64,000 bases of DNA from Escherichia phage vB_EcoM_G37-3 (MK327941.1); one strand, 5' to 3'. Numbered from the stretch's first letter, positions 5,106 through 61,594 are shown. Notes: generated from the sequence alone by a model not told the origin. Translations and numbers: made by a program.

Positions 5106-5106
5106 T

Positions 5107-5955: not shown

Positions 5956-7854
5956 CAAAGCAAAAGATTACACAAATTCCTGATATTTTTAATGCTGCTA
6001 CATTCGATGAAATTAAAAGCGCATTAACAGACTGGATGAGAAACCAGGAAGAATTTAAAGATTTTGATTTTAATGGTGCTGGTATTAACGTATTGATGGA
6101 CTTGCTCGCATATAATACCCTTTATATTCAGCAATTCGCCAACGCCGCGCTATATGAATCTTTTATCAGAACGGCAATTAAGCGTAGTTCAGTTGTTCAA
6201 GCCGCGCAAGATTTAGGATATTTGCCAGCAAGTAAAACTAGTGCATCAACTACAATTATGTTGCATGTATCACATCCACGAAATCCGGCAAGTATTCGAA
6301 TCCCACGAGGAACTAAATTTATTGCAAGTGTGGACCGCCAGACGTCTTATCCGTTTGTTACTACAGAAGACGTTGTGAGCGTTTTAGGTTCAAATGGTTT
6401 ATATACTCCTATGCTTAAAGTCGCACAAGGTCGTATTGTTCGTACAGAAATGTTATTTGATCCGAAGAAACAAATTCTGATCCGCGATCCTGATATTGAC
6501 CGCGCTCAGGTTAAATTGTGGGTGGATGGGGCTGAATGGAAAGACTGGACGCGAGAAAGTATTGTTAATGCAACTGGCGCCAGTAATATTTTCTATATGC
6601 GTGAAACCGTAGACGGTCATACAGAAATCTTCTTTGGTGAAGGTGAATCAACTTTATCTGCTGCTGGCGGTGCACTGGAAGCAAATTATATTGGTGGACT
6701 TAAGCCGTCAACTGGTGCTAATATTGTTATTGAATATATTAGCACTAAAGGCGCGGAAGCAAACGGATCTGTCAATTTCACATACGCGGATACCCTTGCA
6801 TCTATCTCTATTGTTAAAATTATTGAGAATCCGACAAATGATCGTGATTATGTCGGTGCAGATGGTGGTGGTGATCCTGAATCAATCGAACGTATTCGTG
6901 AACTTGCTCCGGTAATGCGTGAATCTCAGCGTCGTTGTGTTACTGCTTCCGACTATGAGGCTTTTGTATCTAGCCGTTTTGGTAGTATTGTTCAGGCGGT
7001 ACAATGTTTCACCGATCGAGAAAAACCAGGTTATGCTTTTGTTGCTGTTAAGCCTAAATCTGGTTTGCGATTGACAACTATTCAAAAAGAAGATATGCGG
7101 GATTATCTGGCAAAATATAACCTTGCCCCTATCACACCGAGCATCATTGACCCTAACTATCTGTATATTAAACAGAATATTAAAGTTTCCTATTCAATCA
7201 ATGACTTATCAGAATCAGAGCAGTGGTTGCGCGGTGCGGTTATTGATCAGATTGATGCATATTATACCGACGAAGTGGAAATTTTTAACCAGACCTTTAG
7301 TAAGTCTAAAATGCTTGCGCGTATTGACAAAGCTGATGTATCTGTGATAGGTTCTAGTGCAGAAATAGAGATGGTTCGAGAGATCGACAACTTCTATAAA
7401 GCACCTATGGCGGGAATCAAGTTTTTAAACCAGTATAAGAGCGGAATCAAGTCTAGTTCGTTCAACTTCGAAAAGGACGGTAAACAATACCCGATCCATT
7501 ATGTAAGTACAGAAATGAACAAAGAATCCGGTTTAGCTAAATTGCTGGTTGGACCTTTCCCTGTTGATTCTACAATCGCTTTACCGCACTTCCGGCACTG
7601 ATTTTGATAAAGAGGTTATTGACGGTGCGGACCTATACTTTGAGGTTGGAGAGGTTCAGCATTATGACGACCTTATTTCATGGGATCTGGGTAAACTGAA
7701 TATCAATAGCGATCGCTTTACTGGTTCATATATTGAGTTGACAGCTAAACCGATTGCTGATAACATCTTTACTAAAGACGGTTCTTTGATCGTGTTTGAA
7801 AACGATCTCCGTCCTCAGTACACAACTATTAGTCTGGAGGCAATTGCTCAATGA
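5952..7854 (+). CDS. 6: baseplate wedge protein gp6, interrupted by an apparent +1 frameshift near 7550-7600
   Basis: Track ORF 5952..7601 (549 aa) continues in +1 frame as 7549..7854 (track start is TTG, i.e. not a real start); combined ~635 aa vs T4 gp6 660 aa; 3' end overlaps gene 7 start. Confidence 0.75.
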
Positions 7855-21007: not shown

Positions 21008-21652
21008 ATGAAAAGACGAAACACATTTTTACGATTGTATGTTACCGAATTTTTATCATCCTCCGGCAAAAAGATATATGGAGGGAAACGACACTCTCCA
21101 TATAAAAATTTCGAATCAGACCCGTATGTCGGGTCTGGAGTGATTATAAAACGAGCAATAGAAAAATATGGAAAGGATTGTGTAATTTCCATATCTTGGT
21201 CAAAACCATTTGAAACACCAGAATTATTGAAAGAGGCCGAAGAATTATTAATAGACGAACTCAAAGACAAATATTCCTATTTTTGCGCTAATTTGGTTAA
21301 AGGTGGACAAGGTGGTTCATATTATGACAAAGACAAAAATCCACGCGTAGGAAAAAAGAGAACTAAAGAAAGTCGAAATAAAATGTCAGAGGCAGCAAAA
21401 AATAGAAAATGGACAGAAGAAGGGTTGAAACGTAGAATCGAAGCAACAATTAAAATGAAAAAAACAGCAAAAGTCCCAGATTTTTCTGGCGACAAAAATC
21501 CAGCCGCAAAGAAAATACAGGTAGGAGATCTTATTTTTAATACTGGAAAAGAATGCGCGAAATATTTTAATATATGTCAAGCAACGGTCATAGATAGGTG
21601 CAAAAATCAACGTCCTAAATGGAAAGAATGGAGATATTATGATTCAATATAA
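21008..21652 (+). CDS. putative Seg-like homing endonuclease (degenerate GIY-YIG N-terminus, NUMOD3/HTH-like C-terminus)
   Basis: Start taken at ATG 21008 (GGGGGAG SD; track start 20987 is TTG); LYV..GKKIYGG..YVGSG N-terminal pattern; [15 protein letters not shown] and [24 protein letters not shown]-binding-like motifs; inserted between genes 13 and 14. Confidence 0.5.
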
Positions 21653-32055: not shown

Positions 32056-33642
32056 ATGAAAACTACCAAAGAACTGATGGAAAAATGGTCCCCGCTGCTG
32101 GAGAACGAAAAACTGCCGGAAATCGCAACTGCGTCTAAGCAGAAACTGGTTGCTAAAATTCTGGAATCTCAGGAAGCGGATTTTGCTGTAGACCCGATCT
32201 ATAAGGATGAAAAAGTTGTTGAAGCATTCGGTGGCTTTATCGCAGAAGCCGAAGTTGCTGGCGACCACGGTTATGACGCATCTAATATCGCGGCTGGTCA
32301 GACTACCGGTGCAATCACCAACGTAGGTCCGGCTGTTATCGGTATGGTTCGCCGTGCTATCCCTAACCTGATCGCATTTGATATTTGTGGTGTTCAGCCG
32401 ATGAGCACTCCGACTAGCCAGATCTTTGCAATCCGTTCTGTATACGGTGGCGATCCGCTGAAATCTGGTGCTCGCGAAGCATTCCACCCGATGTATGCAC
32501 CTGATGCGTTCCATAGCTCTCTTGCTGCTAAAGGTGCAACCGTAGGTTCACCAACTGGTACTGCATTCGCTAAACTAACTCTTTCCCAGGCTATCGCTGC
32601 TGGTGATATCGTATATCACACCTTCGCAGAAACTGGTATTGCGTATCTGCAAAACGTAACTGGTGATTCTGTAACCCCTACCAAAGCAGGTCAAGAAACC
32701 GAAGACGAAACTGTTATGAAACTGATCGAAGAAGGTAAATTGGCTGAAATCGCTTATGGTATGGCTACTTCCATTGCCGAAATTCAGGAAGGCTTTAACG
32801 GTTCCAGCAATAACCCGTGGGCTGAAATGTCAATGCGTATTGACAAACAGGTTGTTGAAGCGAAATCTCGCCAACTGAAAGCCCGTTACTCTATCGAAGT
32901 TGCGCAGGATCTGCGTGCTGTACACGGTATGGATGCTGACGCTGAACTGAATGCTATCCTGGCTAACGAAGTTCTGCTGGAAATCAACCGTGAAATCGTT
33001 GACGTCATCAACTTTACCGCTCAGGTTGGTAAGACTGGTATGACTCAGACCGTTGGTTCTAAAGCTGGTGTATTTGACCTGCAAGACCCGATCGATACTC
33101 GCGGTGCTCGTTGGGCTGGTGAATCCTTCAAATCTCTGATCTACCAGATCGACAAAGAAGCTGCTGAAATCGCTCGTCAGACTGGTCGCGGTGCGGGTAA
33201 CTTTGTTATCGCTTCCCGTAACGTTGTAAACATCCTGGCTTCTGCTGATCAGGGTATCAGTCTTGCTATGCAGGGTGCTGCAAAAGGTCTGAATACCGAC
33301 ACCACTAAAGCTGTTTTCGCTGGTGTTCTGGCTGGTAAGTACAAAGTGTTCATCGACCAGTATGCTCGTCAGGACTACTTCACTGTAGGTTACAAAGGCG
33401 ACAACGAAATGGATGCTGGTATCTACTATGCTCCGTATGTTGCTCTGACTCCGCTGCGTGCAACTGACCCGCAGTCTTTCCACCCGGTTCTGGGCTTCAA
33501 GACTCGCTATGGCATCGGTATTAACCCGTTTGCAGACAGCAAATCCCAGGCACCGTCCGCTCGCATCACCTCCGGTATGTTGAGCAAAGACAGCGTAGGT
33601 AAAAACGCATACTTCCGTCGTGTATGGGTTAAAGGTTGCTAA
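32056..33642 (+). CDS. 23: major capsid protein gp23
   Basis: 528 aa (T4 521); position and size. Confidence 0.95.
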   Translation: MKTTKELMEKWSPLLENEKLPEIATASKQKLVAKILESQEADFAVDPIYKDEKVVEAFGGFIAEAEVAGDHGYDASNIAAGQTTGAITNVGPAVIGMVRRAIPNLIAFDICGVQPMSTPTSQIFAIRSVYGGDPLKSGAREAFHPMYAPDAFHSSLAAKGATVGSPTGTAFAKLTLSQAIAAGDIVYHTFAETGIAYLQNVTGDSVTPTKAGQETEDETVMKLIEEGKLAEIAYGMATSIAEIQEGFNGSSNNPWAEMSMRIDKQVVEAKSRQLKARYSIEVAQDLRAVHGMDADAELNAILANEVLLEINREIVDVINFTAQVGKTGMTQTVGSKAGVFDLQDPIDTRGARWAGESFKSLIYQIDKEAAEIARQTGRGAGNFVIASRNVVNILASADQGISLAMQGAAKGLNTDTTKAVFAGVLAGKYKVFIDQYARQDYFTVGYKGDNEMDAGIYYAPYVALTPLRATDPQSFHPVLGFKTRYGIGINPFADSKSQAPSARITSGMLSKDSVGKNAYFRRVWVKGC

Positions 33643-33727
33643 TATAAGCCATTCCTGAAAAACTTCGGTCGGGTGCAATACCCGACTTATCATAAACCTT
33701 ATGACAGTGTAAAGTGTTAATTCCAAA

Positions 33728-33755
33728 GGGAAGACTCGAAAGGGTCTTCCCTTTT
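33728..33755 (+). terminator. rho-independent terminator after gene 23
   Basis: gggaagac-N8-gtcttccc followed by TTTT; a second hairpin gtcgggt-gcaat-acccgac lies at 33668-33686. Confidence 0.6.
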
Positions 33756-33771
33756 GCGTATTATATCCCGT

Positions 33772-33779
33772 TATAAATA
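33772..33779 (+). promoter_or_regulatory. late promoter motif TATAAATA in the 23-24 spacer
   Basis: Exact motif; no ORF immediately downstream. Confidence 0.4.
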
Positions 33780-34142
33780 AGGTTGCAAGCCTATATTCTA
33801 TTTGGAGCGAAAATAGATACACACAACAAAGACAGGAAGATGCAGAACATCGGTGGGTTGCGATCCTAAATCCGGTGGCTATGATATGTGATTGATTTTG
33901 ATGCGGGATTTATTAAAACACAACAAACAATTCCACCAATTTTCGTAGTAACTGCATGGCAAAGGACCAATGAATGAGATGAGCGTTCATGCTGTGATAT
34001 TGGGTCGGATAGATTTGGTAGATATACAGATCTGGTGTATGCCGACCTTGTTATGACATTCCAGCGTGACGCTAGCGGTAATTTTTTGGTTTTGGTACGC
34101 TGTTCCCTGAATTAACCCAAAATTCTCCATAAGGAGGAATGC

Positions 34143-34295
34143 ATGAGTAAGAAAGAAAACAGCTATGTTATGACTCGTAAGGAATACAACGAATTGATGT
34201 TAGCATTAGCTTATGCAATTATTCGTTCTGATCATGCAATTAATCTGGTAAACAAAGTTAACCGTAGCGTTGATAATGTTTCTAGGAAGAAGTAA
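34143..34295 (+). CDS. hypothetical small protein (50 aa)
   Basis: AAGGAGG SD 6 nt upstream of ATG; MSKKENSYVMTRKEYNELML...; below the ORF-track length cutoff. Confidence 0.5.
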   Translation: MSKKENSYVMTRKEYNELMLALAYAIIRSDHAINLVNKVNRSVDNVSRKK

Positions 34296-34334
34296 GTTTA
34301 TTTTTGGAATCCTTTGGATTCCTTTTTCTTTTTG

Positions 34335-34342
34335 TATAAATA
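34335..34342 (+). promoter_or_regulatory. late promoter motif TATAAATA upstream of gene 24
   Basis: Exact motif about 38 nt upstream of ATG 34380; preceded by hairpin ggaatcc-ttt-ggattcc. Confidence 0.55.
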
Positions 34343-34379
34343 TGATATATCCATTAAGGCAAATACAGGATTCATAAAC

Positions 34380-35621
34380 ATGACTCATATTTTTACTGAA
34401 CTGTTGCGGGAATCTACTTCCTCAGTAGCTAACCAGACAGCGCGACCGCAACTATTATCATTAACTCGCGCGGTAAACAACCTGATTTTCTCTGATCTGG
34501 TAGCAATCCAGCCAACGGATCAACCAGTATCTGCATTGTACGGCCTACGTTATCTTAATCATGATGGTCAGATGACTTTCCGAACTGCTGCAACCTACGG
34601 TGGCGCGGTTGGTGATCGCACAGAGATTGAAGAGTTTTCAAAAGAAAAATCTTATGACGAAGGCGCACTATTCAAATCAGGCGATGTTGTATACGAAGTT
34701 GTGACCGCTGGTACAGTCGGTGAAGATGCCGAAACTCCAGAAGCTGCGATCTTTAAAGGCGTAATGACAAACAAAATTCGTTTCTATAGCGATTGTGCAT
34801 CGGTAGAATACTTTGAAGATAAAAACACCGAAATTGCGTCTACCTCTATGCAGTTTGACAAGTGGCAAGTTAATGTAGGTTCTCGTAAACTGAAAACCTC
34901 GTTCACCACTGAATTAATGCAGGATCTTGAGGCAAGCCAAATCAACTCTGAAAACTCTGTAATTGATCTTCTGGCTACTGTTGCTTCCGAAGAGATCAAC
35001 AAAGATATTATTCAGAAGTTGATCACTGTATCATCTCGCTATAAAATTAAAGGGATCACCCCTGATGGCGTACTTTCTCTCGTTAGCGTTCAGGATGCAC
35101 CAACACAAGCGCGTGAACTTTACCGCTATGCTTGCGAGATGAGCAATCAAATGTTGCGGACTTCCTCCTTTGCTGGTACATACGTTTTGGCGTCTTCTCG
35201 CGTGGTTGGCCTCCTGCAATCATCCGGTTGGATGGAAGAAACCGACAATGCTCTAAGCGAAGGTCGTCTGCGTTGCGGTCTGGAAGTGTACGCAGACACG
35301 ACAACACCTTTCGATTATATGCTCGTTGGTTGTAAGCACATGATCGGTGATATGGAGAGTGTAGGTTCTCTGTTCTACTCCCCATATACAGAAGCCGACG
35401 GCGCTGGCGCGTATAAGAGCGTAATTGACCCTAATAGCTTCCAGCATCATGTAGCTATTATGAATCGTTATTCACTCTCTGTCAACCCATACACATCAAA
35501 AGTTGATCAGGAAGAACACCAGGTCATCAAGGGTGACGATTGGGGTAAAATGGCTGGGCGTTCAGAAATGTCCTACATTTTAGGAATCGAACTGCCACCG
35601 CTTGAGATTGACAACGCTTAA
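34380..35621 (+). CDS. 24: capsid vertex protein gp24
   Basis: Start at ATG 34380 (MTHIFTELLRESTSS..), which resembles T4 gp24 N-terminus; track start 34314 lies upstream of the late promoter. Confidence 0.85.
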   Translation: MTHIFTELLRESTSSVANQTARPQLLSLTRAVNNLIFSDLVAIQPTDQPVSALYGLRYLNHDGQMTFRTAATYGGAVGDRTEIEEFSKEKSYDEGALFKSGDVVYEVVTAGTVGEDAETPEAAIFKGVMTNKIRFYSDCASVEYFEDKNTEIASTSMQFDKWQVNVGSRKLKTSFTTELMQDLEASQINSENSVIDLLATVASEEINKDIIQKLITVSSRYKIKGITPDGVLSLVSVQDAPTQARELYRYACEMSNQMLRTSSFAGTYVLASSRVVGLLQSSGWMEETDNALSEGRLRCGLEVYADTTTPFDYMLVGCKHMIGDMESVGSLFYSPYTEADGAGAYKSVIDPNSFQHHVAIMNRYSLSVNPYTSKVDQEEHQVIKGDDWGKMAGRSEMSYILGIELPPLEIDNA

Positions 35622-37779: not shown

Positions 37780-38990
37780 TTAAGCAGGATGCGTTTCACG
37801 AATGCGTAGAACTCGCTCTAACGTCGCTCGGTCCAGCTTATGTAACTCTTTGGAATGATACATGAAACCATTGCGAGATTCCATGCAAGTGCAATCACTA
37901 TATTTTTCTTCCGCTGCCGCGATCGTCTCCAGATCTTTGGCGTACTTGCTGGTTGAATAAACTTCTCGATCACGCCACTCTAACCCAGCCTCATTGAATT
38001 TAACAATCTCGTCAAATACCCACCATCCAATGTAGATAAATGAAGTTTTGCGCCACGGGATCGGGTGTACGTAACGAAACATTTTAACAACTTCCATTGA
38101 ACATTTTCGGCTTGTACTTGCTGCAACTTCTACTGTTTCATCTTCGATCTGTTGATATAGTTTAGCAACACACCAGAATTTGGCTGTGTCATCGTAAGTA
38201 GCACTCTCTTTGAACAGATGACCGTCTGGCATGATAGAAAATCCTTCCAGTGCTTCGCCGACCTCACTACCGATTAGAGTCGGTGACGGTTGCCCTTCGC
38301 GCTGCAAATACCAGTTATATTTGATCGTCAATTAGGCATACCGCTAGAATCGCCTACAATGTCCTCTGACACAACATAATTAAGTGATATCTCATTACCT
38401 AGTGCCACGGTCTTTGATTCCACCACATCCTGATCTACGTTCATTGTTGCCAGCATGATTTTAGTCGATGCGCTAGCGGCTGAATCTTCCGACTCGCCCC
38501 ACTTTTACAGTATACACGCCGTTTTTATCTGCTGTAAATTCTTGGATCGTAATATCCTTTTTTGTGTCTATAACGTCATCGCCCTTACTCCAACTATAAT
38601 GTAGTTCATAGTTGTCTGCTGGAGTCTTCCCACCAGAAAAATTGACTGTTGCATGTAATTCTACGTCTGTTTGTGATGATACGTAGAATGCTGCGGTTCG
38701 GTGATATTTACGATTAATGCAGCTTCTTCCATGAGGAAAACTTCAGATTCTACTGATGTCATCGTATCGGTATCTTGTACCGTTACTTTATAGCTACCCG
38801 CATTTTCACTTGTTGCGTCTGCTACAGTTAGCGTAGCTGTGCTATTTTCATGCGGTTGGTCGTCTTTTGTCCATGTATATGTCAAATTGCTGGGTAATGG
38901 TTCGTCACCCGCTACAGTCGCCGTTAAGGTGAAACCATCTCCAGCAAGAAAACATCTTTTGTTAGATTGTATTGATACTGTGAAAGCCAT
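37780..38990 (-). pseudogene. hoc: hoc (outer capsid decoration protein) split over four reading-frame segments
   Basis: Track ORFs 38661..38990 (Ig-like: LTYTWTKDDQ..SYKVTV) and 37780..38331 (FRYVHPIPWRKTSFIYIGWWVFDEI..ESRNGF resembles T4 Hoc C-terminal capsid-binding domain); the 330-bp gap translates as further Ig-like segments in two other frames. Confidence 0.7.
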
Positions 38991-39085
38991 ATAAAGCCAC
39001 TCCCATCGAAAATCCGAATTTAATTAATTGAAATAGTTGATTGTCATCAACCAGATAACCATTGCGAGATTCCAATACATGAGTA

Positions 39086-39250
39086 TTAGAATAGTGATGC
39101 AACGAGGCCGAAATAGTATCGATCTCGTCTGGGTATTTGTTCTGCTATAAAGTCTGCTGTACTAACAACAATCTTTAACAGAAGTGGATGACCAACGGAG
39201 CCATAAACCGGATCTTCTGTTTGATGTAATACATTGATTTTGTTAGACAT
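39086..39250 (-). CDS. hypothetical small protein (54 aa from internal ATG)
   Basis: Track ORF 39086..39274; GGGAG SD before ATG 39250. Confidence 0.4.
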   Translation of the reverse strand: MSNKINVLHQTEDPVYGSVGHPLLLKIVVSTADFIAEQIPRRDRYYFGLVASLF

Positions 39251-39330
39251 GTAGTTCTCCCTTTTTAATTGCATAACGGAACTACAATTAAAATTATAAC
39301 AAATATTTCACAACTTTTATCACCCAAAAA

Positions 39331-40056
39331 TTACTTGAGTGTGTGGAATTGGCTATGTTTAGTCTCTCGCACCTTGACAGACCCATCGCGTTTGATATAA
39401 TAGATCAGTGACTTGAGGGTGTCGTGTACATACGCGTGTGGGAAACGCTCTGGATACTTCTTCCAATCTGGAGTATTAACGATCCAGTCGAAAATCCACC
39501 ACGGGCAGGAGTAGTAACCACGACCGCCACCGATCAAACAAATGGTTGGACGGAAACCAGTAAGATCGCAAAATGAATCAGTGTCATGTGCAGGAGAACG
39601 ATGTTCGGCTTCGTCAGAGAAAATGTTTGCTACCGGAGATTTCACTTTAACTTCCGGTGCTTCTTCAACATCTGACTTAACTTCTTCGACCACTGGTTCA
39701 ACTGCTGGAGATTCTTCTTTTGTTTCTTCAATGACGATCTCAGGTTCTTTCATTGCTTCAACCAGAGACGGATCAACTTCGTCGAATACTACTTTATCAT
39801 CTGCGGTGTCTGCTGCCAGAATAAGATCGTTAATACTGGTTCCTTCTGCCGGAGTTTCTTCTTCCATTTCGGAAGCCAGTTTAGTTAATTCGGTTTCTAC
39901 GAACTCGATCATGTTCTCTAGTGAGAACGTCTTTTTGACCTTAATATCAAATTGTTTTGCGTAGTCCGCTAATTCTGTTTTAGCGGTTTTCTGTGCTTCT
40001 TTGTCGTCGGACGCCGCAATAGCGCGGAGTTCTTCGAAATATTCTTTATCAAACAT
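39331..40056 (-). CDS. acidic protein at the T4 inh position (possible inhibitor of prohead protease)
   Basis: 241 aa; Glu-rich middle; position upstream of hoc as inh in T4 (from memory); identity not verified. Confidence 0.4.
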   Translation of the reverse strand: MFDKEYFEELRAIAASDDKEAQKTAKTELADYAKQFDIKVKKTFSLENMIEFVETELTKLASEMEEETPAEGTSINDLILAADTADDKVVFDEVDPSLVEAMKEPEIVIEETKEESPAVEPVVEEVKSDVEEAPEVKVKSPVANIFSDEAEHRSPAHDTDSFCDLTGFRPTICLIGGGRGYYSCPWWIFDWIVNTPDWKKYPERFPHAYVHDTLKSLIYYIKRDGSVKVRETKHSQFHTLK

Positions 40057-40082
40057 GTTATTCTCCTGATTGGGGGTGTTTG

Positions 40083-40090
40083 TATAAATA
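40083..40090 (+). promoter_or_regulatory. late promoter motif TATAAATA upstream of uvsW
   Basis: Exact motif about 37 nt upstream of ATG 40127. Confidence 0.5.
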
Positions 40091-40126
40091 TTTGTATACT
40101 GTATTTATTGAGTGAGGCTATTCGCT

Positions 40127-41814
40127 ATGCAAGATATTAAATTCACTTTCTGAACTACTCCCATGTTCAAATTGAATGTAGCGATTCAATTTTATTAGAA
40201 ATGCGAGATTATTTTAGTTTTGAAGTCGAGGGAGCGCGGTTTCAAAAAAGATTTAAGTATGGTGGATGGGATGGGCGTATTCGTCTTTTAGATTACAACG
40301 GAAAGCTGCCAATCGGTCTAACTAAAACCGTGGGAATCTTCGCTAAAAATATGGGCTATAGCGTATGGGTAGATCCTCGCTTATTCGAAAAAGAACAAGT
40401 TACAGAAGAAGAAATTACAAAATGGTGTAATAACTTAGAATTATATTCCGGTGCTAACAGGATCACCCCTCATTGGTATCAATCAAAGGCCGTCTTTGAA
40501 GGTATTTCATCATAAACGCCGTATGTTAGTTTTGCCTACGTCCGCTGGTAAATCTGCGATTGCTTGTATGTTGTCTCGTTGGTACTTAGAGAATTACGAA
40601 GGGAAAGTGTTGATCATCGTTCCTACCACGTCGCTAGTGCTGCAAATGCGTGATGACTTTGTTGATTATCGCCAGTTTCCTTATGAAGCAATTCATACTA
40701 TCATGAGCGGTACTAGTAAACACGTAGGTGATCGCCTGATCGTTGTTAGTACGTGGCAATCTGCATGTAAACAACCTAGTGAGTGGTTCCAACAATTCGG
40801 GATGGTTATTGTTGACGAATGTCACAAGGCCACTGCTAAAACCTGCTAAACATCGTTACTGATATGGATCATTGTCAATTTAAGATCGGCATGACTGGTT
40901 CCCCTCGTGACGGGAAAGCTAACATGATGCAGTATGTCGGGCTTTTCGGTGATATTTCTAAGATCGTGAGTATTGACCGCCTGATGGAAGAAGGGCAGGT
41001 GACAAAACTGAAAATTAACTGTCTTTTCCTTCGTTATACCGATGAGGAATAGCGCGGTTAAGGGGCGAGAATATGCGGAAGAGATCAAGTACATTACATC
41101 TAACCCACGACGAAATAAGTTTGCTTGTAATTTGGCGCTAAAACTCGCTAAGAAGGGCGAAAACGTATTCCTGATGTTCCGCAACACTAAGCACTGAAAA
41201 TTAACTGTCTTTTCCTTCGTTATACCGATGAGGAATGTAGCGCGGTTAAGGGGCGAGAATATGCGGAAGAGATCAAGTACATTACATCTAACCCACGACG
41301 AAATAAGTTTGCTTGTAATTTGGCGCTAAAACTCGCTAAGAAGGGCGAAAACGTATTCCTGATGTTCCGCAACACTAAGCACGGAAAACTTATGTATGAT
41401 GCGTTACAGAAGGTACACGACAAGGTTTATTATATTGACGGTGGAGTTAAGACAGAAGAACGTGATGAATTTAAGAAATTAGCGGAAGGGGAAACCGGGA
41501 TCATTTGCGTTGCATCCTATGGTGTGTTCTCTACTGGTGTTTCCATCAAGAATTTGCATCATGTTATTTTCGGTCATCCAGTGAAGGAATCAACTATCGT
41601 TCGTCAGAGTATCGGTCGTGCATTGCGTAAACATGGTTCTAAGGATATTGCAACGGTCTGGGATCTTATAGATCATCTGGCGGTGAAGACAAAGAGCAAT
41701 AATGCTAAGAAACAGTTTAGCCACCTTAATTATGCTCTTAAACATGCGCTTGAAAGAATAAAAATTTACAACACCGATCGATTCGAATATGTCACGAAAA
41801 CAATCGAGATTTAA
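40127..41814 (+). pseudogene. uvsW: uvsW (RNA-DNA/DNA-DNA helicase) disrupted by at least three frameshifts and an internal tandem duplication
   Basis: Pieces MQDIK (40127), frame A to 40515, frame B to 40849, frame C 40840..41052, frame C 41191..41814; each aligns to consecutive segments of T4 UvsW as recalled (FSFE..RF..RFKYGGWDGRIRLLDYN, LPTSAGKS, DECH, SPRDGKANMMQYVG, HGSKDIATVWDLID). Confidence 0.75.
41007..41380 (+). repeat. perfect tandem duplication inside uvsW (copy 1 41007-41192, 186 bp; copy 2 41193-41380, 188 bp)
   Basis: Copies identical except a 2-bp (gt) deletion in copy 1 that creates TAG at 41050-41052. Confidence 0.85.
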
Positions 41815-41857: not shown

Positions 41858-42094
41858 ATGATTAGCTTTAAACGTTTTTTGGTTGAGGCCGCTATTGACG
41901 GTTTCATGCGTAAGATTTATTCTTGTAATACTATCGAGGGATTAAATGAACTTGAGGCATATTATGAGAAGCGCAAGAAAGAAACAGAATTGAAACCTGC
42001 TGATGATATTTCGATCCGTGATGCCATCGCTGGACGCCGTAAGCAATTGGAAGCGGACAACGAGCCAGAAGAGGAGCCGGAAGAGGATTTTTAA
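41858..42094 (+). CDS. hypothetical acidic protein at the uvsW.1 position
   Basis: 78 aa ORF track; GGAG SD; position matches T4 uvsW.1. Confidence 0.5.
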   Translation: MISFKRFLVEAAIDGFMRKIYSCNTIEGLNELEAYYEKRKKETELKPADDISIRDAIAGRRKQLEADNEPEEEPEEDF

Positions 42095-45763: not shown

Positions 45764-46281
45764 TGACAGAAACTAAACCTATGTTAAAATTTGTTGTTCC
45801 TGTAAAAAAATTAGAGATAAACGGGAAACATATCAAGATCCCAAAAATGGGGATTAAGCAACATCGATTATTAAAAGATGTTCGTAGCTGTGATGAAACA
45901 TTAAAGATTCTTCTTGATTCAATCTGTCCTGGGTTAAACGCTGCCGAGTCTGAATTGGTTATGCTTAACCTTTGTGCGTTTAATGGTAAGTGTCTGGAAG
46001 AAAAAGATGGTCTTAAGCTGTCTGATGTGTATATTTGTACAGAGACTGAATTTACTTTAAATGGTAAAGTCTTTAAATTTAAAAATCCAATGTATACTTC
46101 TGACCCCATTATCGATGACGCTGATTTCTTGAGTCATCATTATCACGATCCTAGTGTAGACTTCCATGATTTCCCAGCTTTTATTATGGATTGGGCTACA
46201 GGATTAAGAAAAACTATTGCACTGGATACACCGGAAGGTACTATCTATGGTGGAATTAACATATTGGATCGCCTATCATGA
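45763..46281 (+). CDS. 28: baseplate hub distal subunit gp28
   Basis: 172 aa (T4 177); position. Confidence 0.7.
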   Translation: MTETKPMLKFVVPVKKLEINGKHIKIPKMGIKQHRLLKDVRSCDETLKILLDSICPGLNAAESELVMLNLCAFNGKCLEEKDGLKLSDVYICTETEFTLNGKVFKFKNPMYTSDPIIDDADFLSHHYHDPSVDFHDFPAFIMDWATGLRKTIALDTPEGTIYGGINILDRLS

Positions 46282-46305
46282 ATGACGCATTAACATCATT
46301 TCGGG

Positions 46306-48009
46306 ATGCGCAAGGAAGCGGAAGAAAACCCGATTGATAAACTTAACAAATTAGATAAACTTGATTCTATTGATAATTTGCAAGCCGCTACCGAATTGGT
46401 GGCGGAGACAGTGGAACAAAAATCTAATGAAGTTGTTGGTGCGGTAGAGGATAACACCGCAGCCAATGAATTGACGGCAGAAAATACACAATCTACCGCT
46501 GGCAATACCCAAAAAACTTATGAAGAATTGCAAAAACTCAATAATTTCTCTTCTCAGATGAATGAGAAATTACGTGGTTTTGGTGTTATGATGGAACGTA
46601 GATTTGGTGTTGTCAGTAAAATGGCTAGCGGTATTGGTGCGATTGAAGAAGCATTGAAAAAACCGGAACAACCGCAAACAATGCCATCACCTCAGCCAGT
46701 TTTGCCTACTGTGCCGGAACAGCCTAATAATGACAACTATCAAGGTCTTCCAAAGAAAAAACCAGATGTTGAGGAACGGAAGAAAAAGAACGCCACAGAT
46801 AAGCGTAATGCAGATTCTATGGAAAATCTTCTTAAAGTTGTTCGTGGAGGATTTAAAGAAACCATAGGTATCTCTAATAAGGTCTTAGGGATGTTATTTA
46901 AGATCACTTTGACCGCTATGGCAGAAGCCGCAAAATGGGGTGCTATTTTGATGGGTATTGTTTTTGTCATTGATACCCTGATGGTTCATTTCAGATATTG
47001 GAGCGATTTATTCGAGACAAAGTTCAGTGAATTTATGGATAAGGCCGGAGAATGGGCTGGTCCTATTAGCGATATTTTAACTACTGTTCGTCAGGTTCGA
47101 GATTATTGGTCTAAAGGCGAATATGGGGAGTTAATTAAATCTCTTGTTATGGGTATTGGTGATGCATTCTATAAAACCTTTATCCAACTTGATCGAATTA
47201 TCACTACTGGTATTGCTAAAATTCTTCGCATGATCCCTGGTATGGGTGATTATGCCGATAAGTTAGAATATGGTGCTTTAAAATCTGCTGTCGCTCAAGG
47301 CTATACGCCAAATGAAAGAGAACTCGAATTAATGGATAAGATCGAGTCTGAACACGAAGAAGACAAATATGGAGAGCGCACAGGATGGACAGGAAAAGCC
47401 CGTGATATTGGCGAAGCTATTGGGGATTCTATTAAGGATAAAGTTAACGAAGGTCTTGTTAGTCTGGGCTGGAGAGATCAAAAGGATGTTGACGCAGAGA
47501 AACGACAAGAAGAATTAAAACGCGGGGAATATAAGTCTGTTTCTGCTGAACAACGATCTGCTAGTCGTAAACTTAGAATTAAAAGCGAGGGCGCGATCAA
47601 TAATATTAATGAAGTTATGGAGAATTTGAGCGGTGACTATGACAAAGAAAGAATGGGAGAGTTGAAAAAGGATATTGATGTTTACCGTGAGCAAGTTCAA
47701 GATCCTACATTAGTTGAAAGTGATCGTTCTCAGTTAGAGCGTCTTATTGAAAAATTTGATGAGATGTATGCTGATAAAACTAAGGGTGTGGTTCCAACTA
47801 ATCCTGTTCCTGCAACTGAAACGGAAACAGCAAAACAAGCGGAACGTACTGAACAAATGCAGAAACAAGCTGCAATCCAGCAACAAACGACAAATCAGAC
47901 CTCAAACGTAAATAATACACAAATTGTAACAAACAATAGAACTATTAAACAGGGTGCACCAACAACTAGAATTGATGCTCCCGGTACAATTAATATGGGG
48001 AACTTTTAA
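46306..48009 (+). CDS. 29: baseplate hub / tail length determinator gp29
   Basis: 567 aa (T4 590); hydrophobic segment and position. Confidence 0.7.
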   Translation: MRKEAEENPIDKLNKLDKLDSIDNLQAATELVAETVEQKSNEVVGAVEDNTAANELTAENTQSTAGNTQKTYEELQKLNNFSSQMNEKLRGFGVMMERRFGVVSKMASGIGAIEEALKKPEQPQTMPSPQPVLPTVPEQPNNDNYQGLPKKKPDVEERKKKNATDKRNADSMENLLKVVRGGFKETIGISNKVLGMLFKITLTAMAEAAKWGAILMGIVFVIDTLMVHFRYWSDLFETKFSEFMDKAGEWAGPISDILTTVRQVRDYWSKGEYGELIKSLVMGIGDAFYKTFIQLDRIITTGIAKILRMIPGMGDYADKLEYGALKSAVAQGYTPNERELELMDKIESEHEEDKYGERTGWTGKARDIGEAIGDSIKDKVNEGLVSLGWRDQKDVDAEKRQEELKRGEYKSVSAEQRSASRKLRIKSEGAINNINEVMENLSGDYDKERMGELKKDIDVYREQVQDPTLVESDRSQLERLIEKFDEMYADKTKGVVPTNPVPATETETAKQAERTEQMQKQAAIQQQTTNQTSNVNNTQIVTNNRTIKQGAPTTRIDAPGTINMGNF

Positions 48010-50007: not shown

Positions 50008-50033
50008 AGGCGGGGATTATCCCCGCCTTTTTA
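50008..50033. terminator. bidirectional terminator aggcgggga-tta-tccccgcct with flanking T/A runs
   Basis: Between convergent gene 54 and reverse lipoprotein gene. Confidence 0.65.
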
Positions 50034-50543
50034 TTTGATTAAATCATCACATTGTTTGCGTAGTTTATAGCGATACTGTTTTGATTGTAGCAATTGAAGT
50101 TTTTCATAATCCCCTTCCTCATATGCAGCCGAAAGATCATCTTGATATGCTGCTTCCGTCCCGATTACACATACTCCAAATTTTCTACGACGGTCGGCAT
50201 CTTCCATTGCTTTGCGATTCATTTCTTCAATTGAATTTTCATGACCATAATAATATTCGTAAATGCGTTTCTTCTCTGCTTCTTTATCTGCCTTAATCTT
50301 TGCGATCTGTTCTGCTGATTCCGGTTGACGACCTAAACGCTGTAATGAGGCGTCTTTCTTTTCAAGGTAGTCAATCACGCAATCTTCAACGCTATTAAAT
50401 GGAAAACGTGACTCTTTCTGCCATCGTTCACATGACCGTACAAACTCGTGTGTATTCTTAGATGCAAGTGCCAGATCATGCACAGCGCACCCATTAAGCA
50501 TAGCCACTAAAGCCGCAAGACCAATCAGTTTAATCATTTTCAT
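50031..50543 (-). CDS. predicted lipoprotein
   Basis: 170 aa; signal peptide MKMIKLIGLAALVAMLNGC with lipobox L-N-G-C. Confidence 0.6.
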   Translation of the reverse strand: MKMIKLIGLAALVAMLNGCAVHDLALASKNTHEFVRSCERWQKESRFPFNSVEDCVIDYLEKKDASLQRLGRQPESAEQIAKIKADKEAEKKRIYEYYYGHENSIEEMNRKAMEDADRRRKFGVCVIGTEAAYQDDLSAAYEEGDYEKLQLLQSKQYRYKLRKQCDDLIK

Positions 50544-53494: not shown

Positions 53495-53562
53495 TTTATA
53501 TCCTCTAGTTGATAACCTATAAACCTATATTTATGAAAACGGGGCTTAACGCCCCCTTTTTA

Positions 53563-53775
53563 TTATAATGCACCATCGAGCAATTGCTCTAAGGTGTATC
53601 CTGAATAGTCTTTTTCAATCAGGATATATTTTCCTACTCGTTTAATACAACCGCGCATTTCAACATATTCTGCGTAGTTGATGGTGCGAGTTGTTCCATC
53701 TTCTAGCAAAGCAGTACCGATTTCGTTAATGCGGTCATAAGTTACGTAGGTAATGATGATTTCGATGTTAGCCAT
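53563..53775 (-). CDS. hypothetical protein (70 aa from ATG 53775)
   Basis: Track ORF 53563..53841; start moved to internal ATG with AAGGAG SD because the upstream codons overlap the promoter element. Confidence 0.5.
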   Translation of the reverse strand: MANIEIIITYVTYDRINEIGTALLEDGTTRTINYAEYVEMRGCIKRVGKYILIEKDYSGYTLEQLLDGAL

Positions 53776-53809
53776 TTGATACTCCTTAGTAGTTCGTTTC
53801 GGTATGTGT

Positions 53810-53838
53810 ATTATAGGGGATCGATGATCCCCTGTCAA
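53810..53838 (-). promoter_or_regulatory. PeSL-like early promoter cassette: TTGACA, 17-nt palindromic spacer (ggggatc..gatcccc), TATAAT, conserved leader
   Basis: Reverse complement gives TTGACAggggatcatcgatccccTATAAT; A-tract upstream. Confidence 0.6.
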
Positions 53839-53846
53839 CAACTTTT

Positions 53847-54365
53847 TTAGTTATTTTTTAATTGCTCATCTTGCAATAGGGCAATCACATGCTGGCGATG
53901 TTCTTCCGATTGAGGCACACCGAAAAAGTTTGTTTTGTAGAAATACTCTAATCGGTCTTCTCGTGTGCTCTCTTCCATCATGATCGCGGGTAGTCCGAGA
54001 TTTCGGAAACGTCGCTTTTCTGCTGGCGTAAAATCACTGTAATACAACATAGAATCATCATTACCAGCAATGCTAAACTCATCTTTCATAAAGGAGAATA
54101 TTGCGTTTAAACGCTGTTTACCGTCCACGATTTCGATCTCATAGCGAGAGCCATCATCAATCTTAGCCATTGCGATAGCACCAACCGGAAAATCATTAAT
54201 CAGGTTTTCGATAAACATACGTTTGTTTTCGGTGTCCCATACCAAAGGACGCTGATAATCTGGGTTCATGTTGATATATCCATCTTCTAACCACGCCTCA
54301 TAAACAGAGATGACAAAGTTTTTAGTATTGGTATAGTAACGGCGTTTAGGCGTTAAACGGTTCAT
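53847..54365 (-). CDS. DUF262 / ParB-like nucleotide-binding domain protein
   Basis: Start at ATG 54365 (AGGAG SD); DYQRPLVWD..FIENL and VDGKQRLNAI match DUF262 hallmarks (QR, DGQQR-like). Confidence 0.55.
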   Translation of the reverse strand: MNRLTPKRRYYTNTKNFVISVYEAWLEDGYINMNPDYQRPLVWDTENKRMFIENLINDFPVGAIAMAKIDDGSRYEIEIVDGKQRLNAIFSFMKDEFSIAGNDDSMLYYSDFTPAEKRRFRNLGLPAIMMEESTREDRLEYFYKTNFFGVPQSEEHRQHVIALLQDEQLKNN

Positions 54366-55902: not shown

Positions 55903-55942
55903 TGTTTGATTCTCCTAAGTGGTATCTCGTCTTGATGGTTGT

Positions 55943-55971
55943 ATTGTAGGGGAGTTATCCTCCCCTGTCAA
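55943..55971 (-). promoter_or_regulatory. PeSL-like early promoter cassette (TTGACA, ggggag..ctcccc spacer, TACAAT)
   Basis: Read in sequence. Confidence 0.55.
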
Positions 55972-55985
55972 CACTTTTTATAAAA

Positions 55986-56153
55986 TTATTTGTTAATTTC
56001 TGGTGCGTTGCTAGGATAGTAACCTTCTTTAACACCCAGATATTTTGCAACCATCCCTACAATCTTCTGTGCTACTACAATGTCAAATTTCAGATAATCT
56101 TCGCCGTGGGTTTCAATGATATATGCTTCACATGCTGCTTTAGTCTCGAACAT
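55986..56153 (-). CDS. hypothetical small protein (55 aa), copy 1 of a duplicated gene
   Basis: MFETKAACEAYIIETHGEDYLKFDIVVAQKIVGMVAKYLGVKEGYYPSNAPEINK; about 89% identical to 59246..59413. Confidence 0.55.
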   Translation of the reverse strand: MFETKAACEAYIIETHGEDYLKFDIVVAQKIVGMVAKYLGVKEGYYPSNAPEINK

Positions 56154-56186
56154 TTTGATTCTCCTATTTCGTTTCGTTATGTGTGT

Positions 56187-56215
56187 ATTATAGGGGATCT
56201 CCCGATCCCCGTCAA
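56187..56215 (-). promoter_or_regulatory. PeSL-like early promoter cassette (TTGACG, ggggatc..gatcccc spacer, TATAAT)
   Basis: Read in sequence. Confidence 0.55.
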
Positions 56216-56229
56216 CAACTTTTTTAAAA

Positions 56230-56511
56230 TTATTCGTGATTAGTTTCGATGTTGTGCATTTTGCACCAGTTCAGCCAATCACCCAGATCCTGATAGTTAA
56301 TGCTTTTATCTGCTGCCATCGTTTTTGTCTTGATACCCATATGTGCGTTATGAGTAAGCATTTTTACAGTGAACTCAATTTTATCACCTTTAGCTTTAAC
56401 ATCAACCAGTTTGGTCCACTGGCTACCAGCGCCGCGAATGTTCATACCAACGATGTTTCCGATGTATGCTTCTTTGTTTTTCAGGATTTCGGTTGCTTTG
56501 ATGAATTTCAT
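56230..56511 (-). CDS. hypothetical protein (93 aa)
   Basis: ORF track; SD. Confidence 0.55.
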   Translation of the reverse strand: MKFIKATEILKNKEAYIGNIVGMNIRGAGSQWTKLVDVKAKGDKIEFTVKMLTHNAHMGIKTKTMAADKSINYQDLGDWLNWCKMHNIETNHE

Positions 56512-56544
56512 TTTTGATTCTCCAGTTCGTTTCGGTATGTGTGT

Positions 56545-56573
56545 ATTATGCTATGTTCTTACTTTGGTGTCAA
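56545..56573 (-). promoter_or_regulatory. early promoter cassette without palindrome (TTGACA-N17-CATAAT)
   Basis: Read in sequence; same leader as the PeSL-like elements. Confidence 0.5.
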
Positions 56574-56581
56574 CAACTTTT

Positions 56582-56851
56582 TTAGATATTTTCAGAAATA
56601 AATTTTAAAACTTGACGTAAATGTTTCTCATCTTTGATAGTCGCCGGAAGTTCTTCTTTTACTTCCTGTGCAAGATAGATATTTCCGTTCCAAGTGAAAG
56701 ATCCGTCTTCGTTTACGCGATAGCTGAACATCCACTCGCAATCATTTTCGATTTCATATACACACAGAAGGGTGTAATCGTTAAAGCTATTGATTTCAAG
56801 GTCGAAGCCGTGACGTTTTGCAAAGTTGGTAGTGGTTTTAGTCAGAGCCAT
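56582..56851 (-). CDS. hypothetical protein (89 aa)
   Basis: ORF track; SD. Confidence 0.55.
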   Translation of the reverse strand: MALTKTTTNFAKRHGFDLEINSFNDYTLLCVYEIENDCEWMFSYRVNEDGSFTWNGNIYLAQEVKEELPATIKDEKHLRQVLKFISENI

Positions 56852-56891
56852 TGTTTGATTCTCCTAAATGGTATCTCGTTTCGATGTGTGT

Positions 56892-56920
56892 ATTATGCTA
56901 TAGGCCGGATCTGGTGTCAA
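56892..56920 (-). promoter_or_regulatory. early promoter cassette (TTGACA-N17-CATAAT)
   Basis: Read in sequence. Confidence 0.5.
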
Positions 56921-56935
56921 TGCCTTTTTTAAAAA

Positions 56936-57609: not shown

Positions 57610-57655
57610 AATTTGATTCTCCTAGTTAGAAAGTGTATCTCGTTTCGATGGGGAT

Positions 57656-57684
57656 ATTATGCTATATCCCCGATCCGGTGTCAA
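57656..57684 (-). promoter_or_regulatory. PeSL-like early promoter cassette
   Basis: TTGACA, 17-nt spacer, CATAAT on reverse strand. Confidence 0.5.
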
Positions 57685-57690
57685 CACTTT

Positions 57691-57969
57691 TTATAAAATA
57701 ATTTTTTGATATTTTTCTATGATGTTCGTGTAAGTCACATCAACCGCTAGCACCGTTGCTTCGAATCCACCGTTTAGCCAATGGCTATGATCATGATCGT
57801 GAAAGAAACCTAGACCAGTACGAAGACCTTCTTTATATTCTGCGCGTACATTCAGTTTGTCGTCGATAAACAGATAAAACCATGAATTTTTACTAGGATT
57901 GATGATACAACCTTTCAGATTAGGGAGAATATCACGACTAAGAATAAACTTATCACCTACTTTGAGCAT
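57691..57969 (-). CDS. hypothetical protein, paralogue family A
   Basis: Start at internal ATG 57969 (GAGGAAA SD); FYLFIDDKLNV..HDHDHSHW..VLAVDV. Confidence 0.5.
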   Translation of the reverse strand: MLKVGDKFILSRDILPNLKGCIINPSKNSWFYLFIDDKLNVRAEYKEGLRTGLGFFHDHDHSHWLNGGFEATVLAVDVTYTNIIEKYQKIIL

Positions 57970-59242: not shown

Positions 59243-59245
59243 CGA

Positions 59246-59413
59246 TTATTTGTTAATTTCCGGTGCGTTGCTTGGATAGTAGCCTTCTTTAACACCCAGA
59301 TATTTTGCAACCATTCCGGTGATCTTCTGTGCTACTACGATATCGAATTTCAGGTAGTCTTCACCGTGGTTTGCTACAATGTATGCTTCGCATTCTGCTT
59401 TAGTCTGGAACAT
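59246..59413 (-). CDS. hypothetical small protein (55 aa), copy 2 of duplicated gene
   Basis: MFQTKAECEAYIVANHGEDYLKFDIVVAQKITGMVAKYLGVKEGYYPSNAPEINK. Confidence 0.55.
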   Translation of the reverse strand: MFQTKAECEAYIVANHGEDYLKFDIVVAQKITGMVAKYLGVKEGYYPSNAPEINK

Positions 59414-59447
59414 TTTTGATTCTCCTATATCTCGTTGGTATGTGTGT

Positions 59448-59476
59448 AGTATAGGGGATCACCGATCCCCTGTCAA
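59448..59476 (-). promoter_or_regulatory. PeSL-like early promoter cassette (TTGACA, ggggatc..gatcccc spacer, TATACT)
   Basis: Read in sequence. Confidence 0.55.
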
Positions 59477-59484
59477 CAACTTTT

Positions 59485-59775
59485 TTATTCTTTATACGCA
59501 TATTTCATAAATTTGTCTGCTACTTCATCGGCATGTTCCGATTCTACGCCGGATTCGAGAACAATAGCAAGGTCGGTTTCGTCGTGACCTTCGTACCAGT
59601 GATTATGTGTGTCGTTTGAATCAATATAGAATTTATCACCTTCGTAAGTTCGAGCAAATACATCTAAATTCTCGTCGATGTAAAAGATCCAATCTTCATA
59701 AAGAATAACCGTATTAGCAAGGTTCTTATTACCTTCAACGAAAGGTTCGGCTACAAACAAATCAGTACGTTCCAT
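59485..59775 (-). CDS. hypothetical protein, paralogue family A
   Basis: 96 aa; WIFYIDENLDV..THNHWYEGHDE. Confidence 0.55.
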   Translation of the reverse strand: MERTDLFVAEPFVEGNKNLANTVILYEDWIFYIDENLDVFARTYEGDKFYIDSNDTHNHWYEGHDETDLAIVLESGVESEHADEVADKFMKYAYKE

Positions 59776-60778: not shown

Positions 60779-60812
60779 GTTTGATTCTCCTAGTTCGTTT
60801 CGGTATGTGTGT

Positions 60813-60842
60813 ATTATAGGGGAGTTTAACCTCCCTTGTCAA
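60813..60842 (-). promoter_or_regulatory. PeSL-like early promoter cassette (TTGACA, ggggag..ctccc spacer, TATAAT)
   Basis: Read in sequence. Confidence 0.55.
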
Positions 60843-60850
60843 CAACTTTT

Positions 60851-61162
60851 TTAAAGTTTTTCCATGATAACGGTCATAATTACATCTTCTGCGCGGGCGG
60901 TCAGATTATCAGCGTCAGCATGTGGGCGGTTGGTTGTTACAGAGATAACACCGTTGCGCACTGGTTTGATATTGATATCAAGATGATCCGCGAAACGTTC
61001 GCCAGTTACAGAATGAATTTTGGTGTTAAATTCTTTTGCCAGTGCCTTGCGAACTTCACGAATCAGGATAGCGTTTTTCAGTTGGTTCTCCGCGCTCATG
61101 GTCTTCTGGGTGTTCATGGTTCCGTCGAAGTCAATCATTGGCAGCGTTACGATGTATTTCAT
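60851..61162 (-). CDS. hypothetical protein, paralogue family B
   Basis: 103 aa ORF track. Confidence 0.55.
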   Translation of the reverse strand: MKYIVTLPMIDFDGTMNTQKTMSAENQLKNAILIREVRKALAKEFNTKIHSVTGERFADHLDINIKPVRNGVISVTTNRPHADADNLTARAEDVIMTVIMEKL

Positions 61163-61207
61163 TTTTGATTCTCCGTTTAAGAAAGTGTGTTTCGTTTTGA
61201 TGTGTGT

Positions 61208-61236
61208 AGTATAGGGGATACGTGATCCCCTGTCAA
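61208..61236 (-). promoter_or_regulatory. PeSL-like early promoter cassette (TTGACA, ggggata..gatcccc spacer, TATACT)
   Basis: Read in sequence. Confidence 0.55.
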
Positions 61237-61249
61237 CAACTTTTTTGAA

Positions 61250-61594
61250 TTATTTTTTCATGAGCTTAATGGCTTCTTCCATAGCCAGCACATTTCGATA
61301 GTTAGGGTATCGTGTTAGATCGTCATACATTCGCTTAAGGGTGGAAACTTCCTCAAACTCTGGGTTTTCTAGATACAGTTGAACAAATTGTTTCTCTACC
61401 ATCTCGGCTTTTAGCTTGTCTGCTTGTTCCTGTTCATATGATTTCGTTGGACCCAACACCAACAAAATGATAAAGGTGATCAACGGGCTAATGATCAATG
61501 ATAGGATAACATAACCGATAACGCTACGGTTTAAACGGCTTGCGTACATGCCTACCAGGAAAACAAAAAGGATATAGATAAACAGAAAGAACAT
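61250..61594 (-). CDS. hypothetical membrane protein (two predicted TM helices)
   Basis: 114 aa; hydrophobic N-terminal half; AAGGAG SD. Confidence 0.55.
   Translation of the reverse strand: MFFLFIYILFVFLVGMYASRLNRSVIGYVILSLIISPLITFIILLVLGPTKSYEQEQADKLKAEMVEKQFVQLYLENPEFEEVSTLKRMYDDLTRYPNYRNVLAMEEAIKLMKK

Follow-up and report, generated by a model that had tools for sequence, protein, structure and literature searches.

Organization of the uvsW locus

The window analyzed here is a 64-kb stretch of the genome of Escherichia phage vB_EcoM_G37-3 (MK327941.1), an RB49-like coliphage of the T4 type (Krischvirus), and all coordinates given below are positions in this window. The locus under study comprises uvsW, the gene for the T4-type SF2 helicase, and its neighbors inh and uvsW.1, with the following features:

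39331-40056, minus strand: inh (prohead protease inhibitor), flanked by the broken genes hoc and uvsW but itself intact
40127-41814, plus strand: uvsW, broken into at least six pieces as written
40135-40141 (~40139), plus strand: private 1-nt deletion in uvsW, codon 4-5, A4 to A3 (ATATTAAAATT to ATATTAAATT)
40503-40507 (~40505), plus strand: private 1-nt insertion in uvsW, T2 to T3 (GGTATTCAT to GGTATTTCAT)
40834-40841 (~40838), plus strand: private 1-nt deletion in uvsW, A5 to A4 (GCTAAAAACC to GCTAAAACC)
41007-41192, plus strand: copy 1 of a tandem duplication, 186 nt, without the GT/TG present in copy 2 and in all relatives
41050-41052, plus strand: TAG in copy 1 that results from the 2-nt deletion (GAG GAA TGT AGC to GAG GAA TAG C)
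41193-41380, plus strand: copy 2 of the tandem duplication, 188 nt, with the length and register of the single copy of the relatives
41381-41388, plus strand: ACGGAAAA, the right-flank partner of ACTGAAAA; Tandem Repeats Finder extends the repeat to 41388
41858-42094, plus strand: uvsW.1, intact, downstream of uvsW

As written, uvsW has no uninterrupted frame of ~500 codons in the window. The ORF list divides it into pieces at 40127-40153, 40201-40515, 40451-40849, 40864-41052, 41042-41197 and 41320-41814. A preliminary description of this DNA had held that copy 1 ends an upstream fragment of the gene; that fragment is already in four pieces, because three more private frameshifts lie upstream, namely the 1-nt indels listed above, which were found by three-way alignment with GoldenSnicker and RB49. 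The other half of the statement stood, as copy 2 does continue into an undamaged 3' part.

The gene was repaired in silico by removing copy 1 and reversing the three 1-nt indels. The repaired gene encodes a clean 500-aa protein with the domains UvsW_N (PF21241; 2.8e-42), ResIII/DEAD (PF04851; 2e-21) and Helicase_C (PF00271; 1.8e-11), and residues 3-499 of this protein align with residues 2-501 of the T4 UvsW crystal structure 2OCA (E = 2.2e-196). This end-to-end match confirmed the initial naming of the gene as uvsW. The gene order inh - uvsW - uvsW.1 - uvsY.-2 - uvsY is conserved, as judged from tblastn searches with RB49 proteins and from the annotations of RB49, Phi1, ECD7 and W115. By its domains, colinearity and synteny, the gene belongs to the UvsW family.

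Structure of the tandem duplication

Positions 41007-41192 and 41193-41380 are head-to-tail direct copies without any spacer or filler, as found both with a repeat finder and by direct alignment. In a global alignment, their sole difference is a 2-nt gap in copy 1 (GAGGAA--TAGCG versus GAGGAATGTAGCG), and the resulting TAG sits in the local uvsW frame. Tandem Repeats Finder described the duplication as a repeat with a period of 188, 2.0 copies, 98% matches and a score of 739. It is the only large tandem repeat within the 64 kb, which excludes chance as its source. The coordinates of the copies, the missing GT as their only difference and the position of the stop codon had all been given correctly in the preliminary description.

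The duplicated segment corresponds to nt 882-1069 of the uvsW gene (residues ~295-356), a stretch in which the ResIII/SWI2_SNF2 match ends and the Helicase_C match begins. The part of UvsW that matches the T4 protein had been assigned to copy 2, which does encode it, but the same residues are encoded by copy 1. Copy 1 continues the damaged 5' part of uvsW, and copy 2 leads into the clean 3' part. Window-specific SNPs are the only differences between copy 2 and the single copy of the relatives, and those at 41280/41092 and 41373/41185 are common to both copies.

Each copy opens with ACTGAAAA (41007-41014 and 41193-41200). The repeat cannot be extended leftward, and to the right it continues with AC, a mismatch and GAAAA. 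The AC noted earlier at the junction was thus correct by direct alignment, and it extends to an imperfect 8-mer. The ancestral boundaries of the duplication are ACTGAAAA on the left and ACGGAAAA on the right, an imperfect microhomology of 7/8, in which perfect homology is confined to AC; of the two versions, the junction keeps the left-hand one alone. Among position pairs in the window, a 7/8 match in a fixed register occurs with an empirical frequency of 6.5e-4.

Such a boundary microhomology is what T4-type recombination leaves, and for this reason we retain, tentatively and as the less likely alternative, the reading that the sequence records a real and very recent tandem duplication of 188 nt. 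It would have arisen between ACTGAAAA (nt 882) and ACGGAAAA (nt 1070), either by slipped mispairing or by minihomology recombination of the UvsX type, and the resulting +2 frame shift would have abolished UvsW function in the stock that was sequenced. The small indels would then either be neutral changes that struck the already dead gene later, or sequencing errors unrelated to the duplication. The 7/8 microhomology has the junction polarity that slipped mispairing predicts during bottom-strand extension, and the presence of the strain's own SNPs in both copies also speaks for a real event. So does the dispensability of the gene: hoc and uvsW are non-essential in T4, and T4 forms plaques without uvsW. 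In T4-type phages, tandem amplifications and deletions arise readily at homologies of 3-10 nt (PMC9391042, PMC8262927). The boundaries of T4 tandem amplifications are microhomologies of 6-10 bp, one copy of which is retained between the repeats (Srikant et al. 2022, PMC9391042), and end joining in T4 uses homologies of 3-7 nt (Wu et al. 2021, PMC8262927).

The duplication would appear to have the form of a T4 microhomology duplication. It shares with the products of T4 minihomology recombination (PMC9391042, PMC8262927) the head-to-tail arrangement of the copies and the phage family, and perhaps also the short flanking homology with a single copy of it at the junction. It differs from them in that this homology is imperfect (2 nt perfect, 7/8 overall), and in being intragenic and destructive, whereas the T4 cases are adaptive gene amplifications.

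Reading frame across the duplication

The preliminary description remarked that the 2-nt deletion restores the register between the copies, since 186 nt are 62 codons. The arithmetic is right, and the start of copy 1, all of copy 2 and the 3' part of uvsW do share one frame, but no functional meaning attaches to this. If the 2-nt deletion compensated for the 188-nt insertion, the product would be a UvsW with a 62-residue internal repeat or else a split helicase, a reading to which we give practically no weight, even though the length of 186 is divisible by three. The frame that the deletion would restore contains six stops, the TAG at 41050 and five more before 41193. The three upstream frameshifts, moreover, end translation early, so that the first uvsW fragment has 8 codons, and the only start of the 3' fragment in a mechanical ORF list is a TTG at 41320. 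A compensatory frameshift pair implies an open frame between and beyond the two changes; none is present between and beyond the deletion and the duplication. With stops in the restored frame and early termination upstream, neither a repeat-containing nor a split UvsW can be made, and functional frame restoration was rejected on account of the six stops.

The uvsW gene in related sequences

The region 40100-42100 matches 56 phage records in INPHARED, and the query is spanned by 55 of the 56. Among the full-length matches listed, the matching stretch is 1815-1817 nt long in the record versus 2001 nt in the window, which indicates that the relatives hold a single copy. In RB49, GoldenSnicker, ECD7, Phi1, W115, MIZ4 and G5211, uvsW is uninterrupted and 1503 nt long, and it has inh to one side and uvsW.1, uvsY.-2 and uvsY to the other. 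The duplication was found in none of ~70 related sequences (the 55 spanning phage records, four contigs with a 500-aa UvsW and 11 IMG/VR contigs), and uvsW is intact in all ~70, which argues against a real duplication in the present phage.

The sequence of the duplication junction had no match in IMG/VR, JGI metagenome or GTDB contigs. The undeleted 28-mer, used as a wild-type control, is present once in each of 11 IMG/VR contigs, whereas lesion-bearing k-mers were not found in IMG/VR; on these grounds, the possibility that the lesions are shared polymorphisms was rejected. A literature search for a Krischvirus with a split uvsW found none.

A separate observation concerns uvsW-like genes in bacteria. 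In 32 of 5426 complete E. coli genomes there is a chromosomal gene annotated as 'DEAD/DEAH box helicase' that is 80-88% identical at the nucleotide level to Krischvirus uvsW (window 40306-41679), an example being NZ_CP042903.1 2918694-2920184. In CFSAN061761, the gene lies within a prophage-like insertion that disrupts ycdX, adjoins a recombinase-family gene and has genes with the annotations phage tail tip and baseplate hub protein in its vicinity. This suggests that uvsW was recently exchanged between lytic T4-type phages and an integrated phage. Several IMG/VR contigs of 33-45 kb with the same 28-mer may represent the same E. coli element.

Private indels in hoc, gp6 and gp29

Indels were surveyed by comparing the whole window with RB49 and G5211, and the part between 36 and 48.5 kb with six relatives. 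Frameshifts were surveyed by tblastn of 90 RB49 proteins against the window. Among these 90 proteins, only gp6, hoc, uvsW and gp29 are frameshifted, and the other RB49 proteins with a counterpart in the window, including capsid, portal, terminase, sheath, ligase, alt and ~30 small unknown ORFs, lie in a single frame. The affected genes besides uvsW are:

5952-7854, plus strand: gp6, baseplate wedge gene, private 2-nt deletion at 7590
37780-38990, minus strand: hoc, head decoration gene, private deletions at ~38330 (-1), 38500 (-2, CACAC to CAC) and 38687 (-1)
46278-48009, plus strand: gp29 (baseplate hub / tape measure), private 2-nt deletion at 46302 (CGCG to CG), codon 9

When its three deletions are filled, hoc becomes a full ORF of 404 aa. 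The deletion in gp6 throws the last 87 aa out of frame; the equivalent part of the T4 protein, residues 573-660, is a conserved C-terminal domain and is part of the solved baseplate structures. In gp29, an in-frame ATG at 46306, 4 nt after the deletion, leaves an ORF of 567 aa (577 aa in relatives).

Altogether, the small coding indels comprise eight deletions and one insertion, all of 1-2 nt and mostly in short A/T runs or in CA/CG dinucleotide repeats. Seven of the nine lie within 38330-41050, in the 2.9 kb to the left of the duplication junction, and 200,000 simulations with uniform placement did not once reach this concentration. The last indel of the cluster lies 142 nt short of the junction; beyond the junction, no private indel occurs until 46302, 5.1 kb to the right. 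Genome-wide random error as a complete explanation was rejected on this strong clustering. Inspection by eye of the surroundings of the indels and private SNPs for a shared motif, such as Dam/Dcm sites or NGG PAMs, revealed nothing consistent.

Substitutions tell a different story from indels in uvsW. Compared with 11 relatives, the repaired gene has five private SNPs, all of them transitions and four of them synonymous; five disruptive length changes stand against at most two missense changes. Three more uvsW SNPs that are private with respect to the first six relatives are common to G5211 and are therefore natural variants. Had the gene drifted for the time needed to accumulate four small indels and a duplication, its substitutions should be far more numerous and predominantly non-synonymous. 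Long-term pseudogene decay was rejected on the ratio of indels to substitutions and on the mostly synonymous private SNPs.

The same figures weigh on the real-duplication reading. Were the small indels real as well, seven indels against few, mostly synonymous SNPs would make an implausible spectrum, and the truncation of gp6 would lie inside a 27-kb block that is otherwise identical to G5211. The duplication would have to be located at the exact edge of an indel-rich patch by coincidence. Moreover, ~30 other dispensable small ORFs and alt stay intact. The loss-of-function uvsW (dar) mutants of T4 offer a comparison, since the lesion described here, if real, would abolish the same SF2 helicase. 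Those mutants carry single point or amber lesions and arose in a laboratory strain, whereas here five lesions fall in one gene of what is presumably a wild isolate and come without matching substitutions.

Small indels relative to the relatives compared were also seen in intergenic sequence, at 33751 (-1), 33993 (+2) and 34082 (+1) in the gp23-gp24 spacer (region 33640-34380), and several near 53557-53843 (region 53550-53850). The relatives, too, differ from one another by indels in the gp23-gp24 spacer, and the intergenic indels may be natural, though they could share the same error class.

Comparison with G5211

Positions ~5000-31900 of the window are 100.000% identical to vB_EcoM_G5211 (MK327947; manure, Germany), with zero substitutions over ~27 kb and the gp6 deletion at 7590 as the sole difference, and the flanks of this block diverge by 1-25%. 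The block is the product of a very recent mosaic recombination with a G5211-like phage. Two endonuclease genes that are extra with respect to RB49 are common to the window and G5211 (5105-5644 and 21008-21652): one of the HNH type, lying between 5.1 and 5.4/PAAR, and one of the GIY-YIG type, lying between gp13 and gp14.

At the uvsW locus, G5211 differs from the window (G5211 103653-105891 compared with window 40057-41200). It has an ORF for a GIY-YIG homing endonuclease exactly between inh and uvsW, a gene that the window lacks, and the first ~1 kb of its uvsW is recoded, with 73.5% nucleotide identity versus 430 of 501 identical protein positions (stop included). Divergence of the flanking sequence is often seen beside homing endonuclease genes. 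The recoded tract ends near gene nt 1000, inside the duplicated segment; the chance that such a boundary falls within the 188 nt is 12.5% and is not significant.

These observations raised the possibility that the cluster at 38.3-41.2 kb is the scar of repeated double-strand-break or gap repair at the inh-uvsW site, the endonuclease site in G5211, where error-prone, template-switching synthesis would have produced frameshifts to either side and, where the tract ends, a microhomology duplication. The location of the G5211 endonuclease ORF, the end of the recoded tract within the duplicated segment, the very recent recombination with a G5211-like phage (27 kb at 100%) and the extension of the lesion cluster from ~1.8 kb left to ~1.1 kb right of the inh-uvsW site are in its favor. 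We nevertheless regard it as very unlikely. Seven indels in 2.9 kb would imply an error rate that is orders of magnitude too high, and we know of no documented error rate of T4 repair synthesis near that figure. The deletions in gp6 and gp29 would be left unexplained, the coincidence of the boundary with the segment is not significant, as stated, and the patch contains zero G5211-type bases. This last finding also led to the rejection of a chimeric consensus with the G5211 allele, no base of the G5211 type being found in the damaged part. It is correspondingly improbable that all of the lesions are real, in which case indels arising in a local burst, centered on the inh-uvsW site and capped by a microhomology duplication, would have cost a natural Krischvirus both UvsW and Hoc.

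Dispersed repeats and a variable ORF elsewhere in the window

Besides the features above, the right-hand part of the window contains a family of intergenic repeats of ~70 nt (GTATGTGTGTATTATAGGGGATC...GATCCCCTGTCAACAACTTTTTTA, with an internal stem-loop), located between small leftward ORFs:

53776-53852: ~70-nt intergenic repeat
55917-55985: ~70-nt intergenic repeat
56153-56226: ~70-nt intergenic repeat
56511-56584: ~70-nt intergenic repeat
56866-56934: ~70-nt intergenic repeat
57630-57698: ~70-nt intergenic repeat
59414-59487: ~70-nt intergenic repeat
60779-60852: ~70-nt intergenic repeat
61174-61250: ~70-nt intergenic repeat

Presumably these resemble the promoter-plus-stem-loop cassettes (PeSLs) of RB49-type phages. 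A dispersed direct repeat of 172 nt with 87% identity (55985-56156 and 59245-59416) covers two paralogous ORFs of 55 aa, homologues of RB49 p191 and p205. At the position of RB49 p182 there is an ORF of 170 aa (50031-50543, minus strand) that is 33% identical to RB49 p182. An identical 170-aa protein is encoded by phage PHB13 and by several metagenome and Logan contigs, which points to a swappable cassette beside gp54.

Origin of the duplication

The two alternatives named at the outset for two copies of such similarity, a very recent event or an assembly artefact, still stand. The finding of private 1-2 nt deletions in hoc, and in gp6 and gp29, which are essential genes, replaces the picture of a curious mutation by that of a record that is locally rich in errors. 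The lesions lie at the positions given, are private to this sequence and overlie a clean coding sequence. That they are errors, joined in the manner set out below, is the most likely explanation, and we assign a probability of roughly 0.6 to the duplication being a sequencing or assembly artefact, that is, a patch of low-quality consensus ending in an unmerged overlap.

According to this model, ~2.9 kb of low-quality consensus (38.3-41.2 kb) would end in copy 1, and a high-quality stretch starting with copy 2 would have been abutted to it. The 188-nt overlap would have been concatenated instead of merged, so that the two copies would be two reads of one locus. A bad patch that ends in copy 1 and a clean stretch that opens with copy 2 are what leads to the view that the same locus was read twice. 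The overlap may have come about when overlapping linear-contig ends of a circularly permuted genome were left untrimmed and the sequence was then rotated to the RB49 start; alternatively, a few aberrant long reads may have dominated a low-coverage spot. The GT missing from copy 1 would be one more consensus error of the type seen in the patch, where the local density of ~1 indel per 400 nt predicts ~0.5 in 186 nt. The indel-only, deletion-biased spectrum would be the typical residue of a long-read consensus. As for gp6, a consensus error explains the deletion far better than a fixed mutation does, since a presumably lethal change would otherwise be all that separates the window from G5211 over 27 kb. 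In the phage itself, uvsW would then be single-copy and intact, and hoc, gp6 and gp29 would be intact too.

The duplication matches an assembly artefact in every feature that could be tested at the level of sequence. Unmerged terminal overlaps and unpolished ends of circular or circularly permuted phage assemblies yield two adjacent near-identical copies, as here. The likeness extends to one copy lying on an indel-rich stretch and the other on a clean one, to a 2-nt difference of the error type and to the restriction of the arrangement to one record.

Several points stand against the artefact. In silico concatenation gives no reason for, and does not predict, a 7/8 microhomology at the boundary (chance 6.5e-4) with its left-hand version kept, although this argument is weaker than the raw p-value, because the perfect part is only 2 nt long. 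The length of 186/188 nt differs from the usual de Bruijn terminal overlaps, which follow the common k-mer sizes (55, 77, 99, 127). All lesions sit where tolerance is possible, in hoc and uvsW and, in the case of gp29, 4 nt before an in-frame ATG, and inh, located between the two broken genes, is untouched.

Implications

Under either explanation, the duplication is no new kind of feature: if real, it is a loss-of-function duplication of an ordinary sort. Should it be an artefact, the record would be unfit for claiming the loss of uvsW or hoc, or the existence of gp6 and gp29 variants, and its annotations of uvsW, hoc, gp6 and gp29 would need correction. If all lesions were real, they would mark where attack by a homing endonuclease had provoked mutagenic repair of a double-strand gap. 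If the duplication itself is real, the phage would be a natural uvsW-null strain, expected by analogy with T4 to be sensitive to UV and hydroxyurea and to be altered in late replication. It would represent an ordinary T4-type microhomology knockout of a helicase kept by every other sequenced Krischvirus examined; rather than a new kind of system, it would be a case that bears mildly on how dispensable UvsW is in nature.
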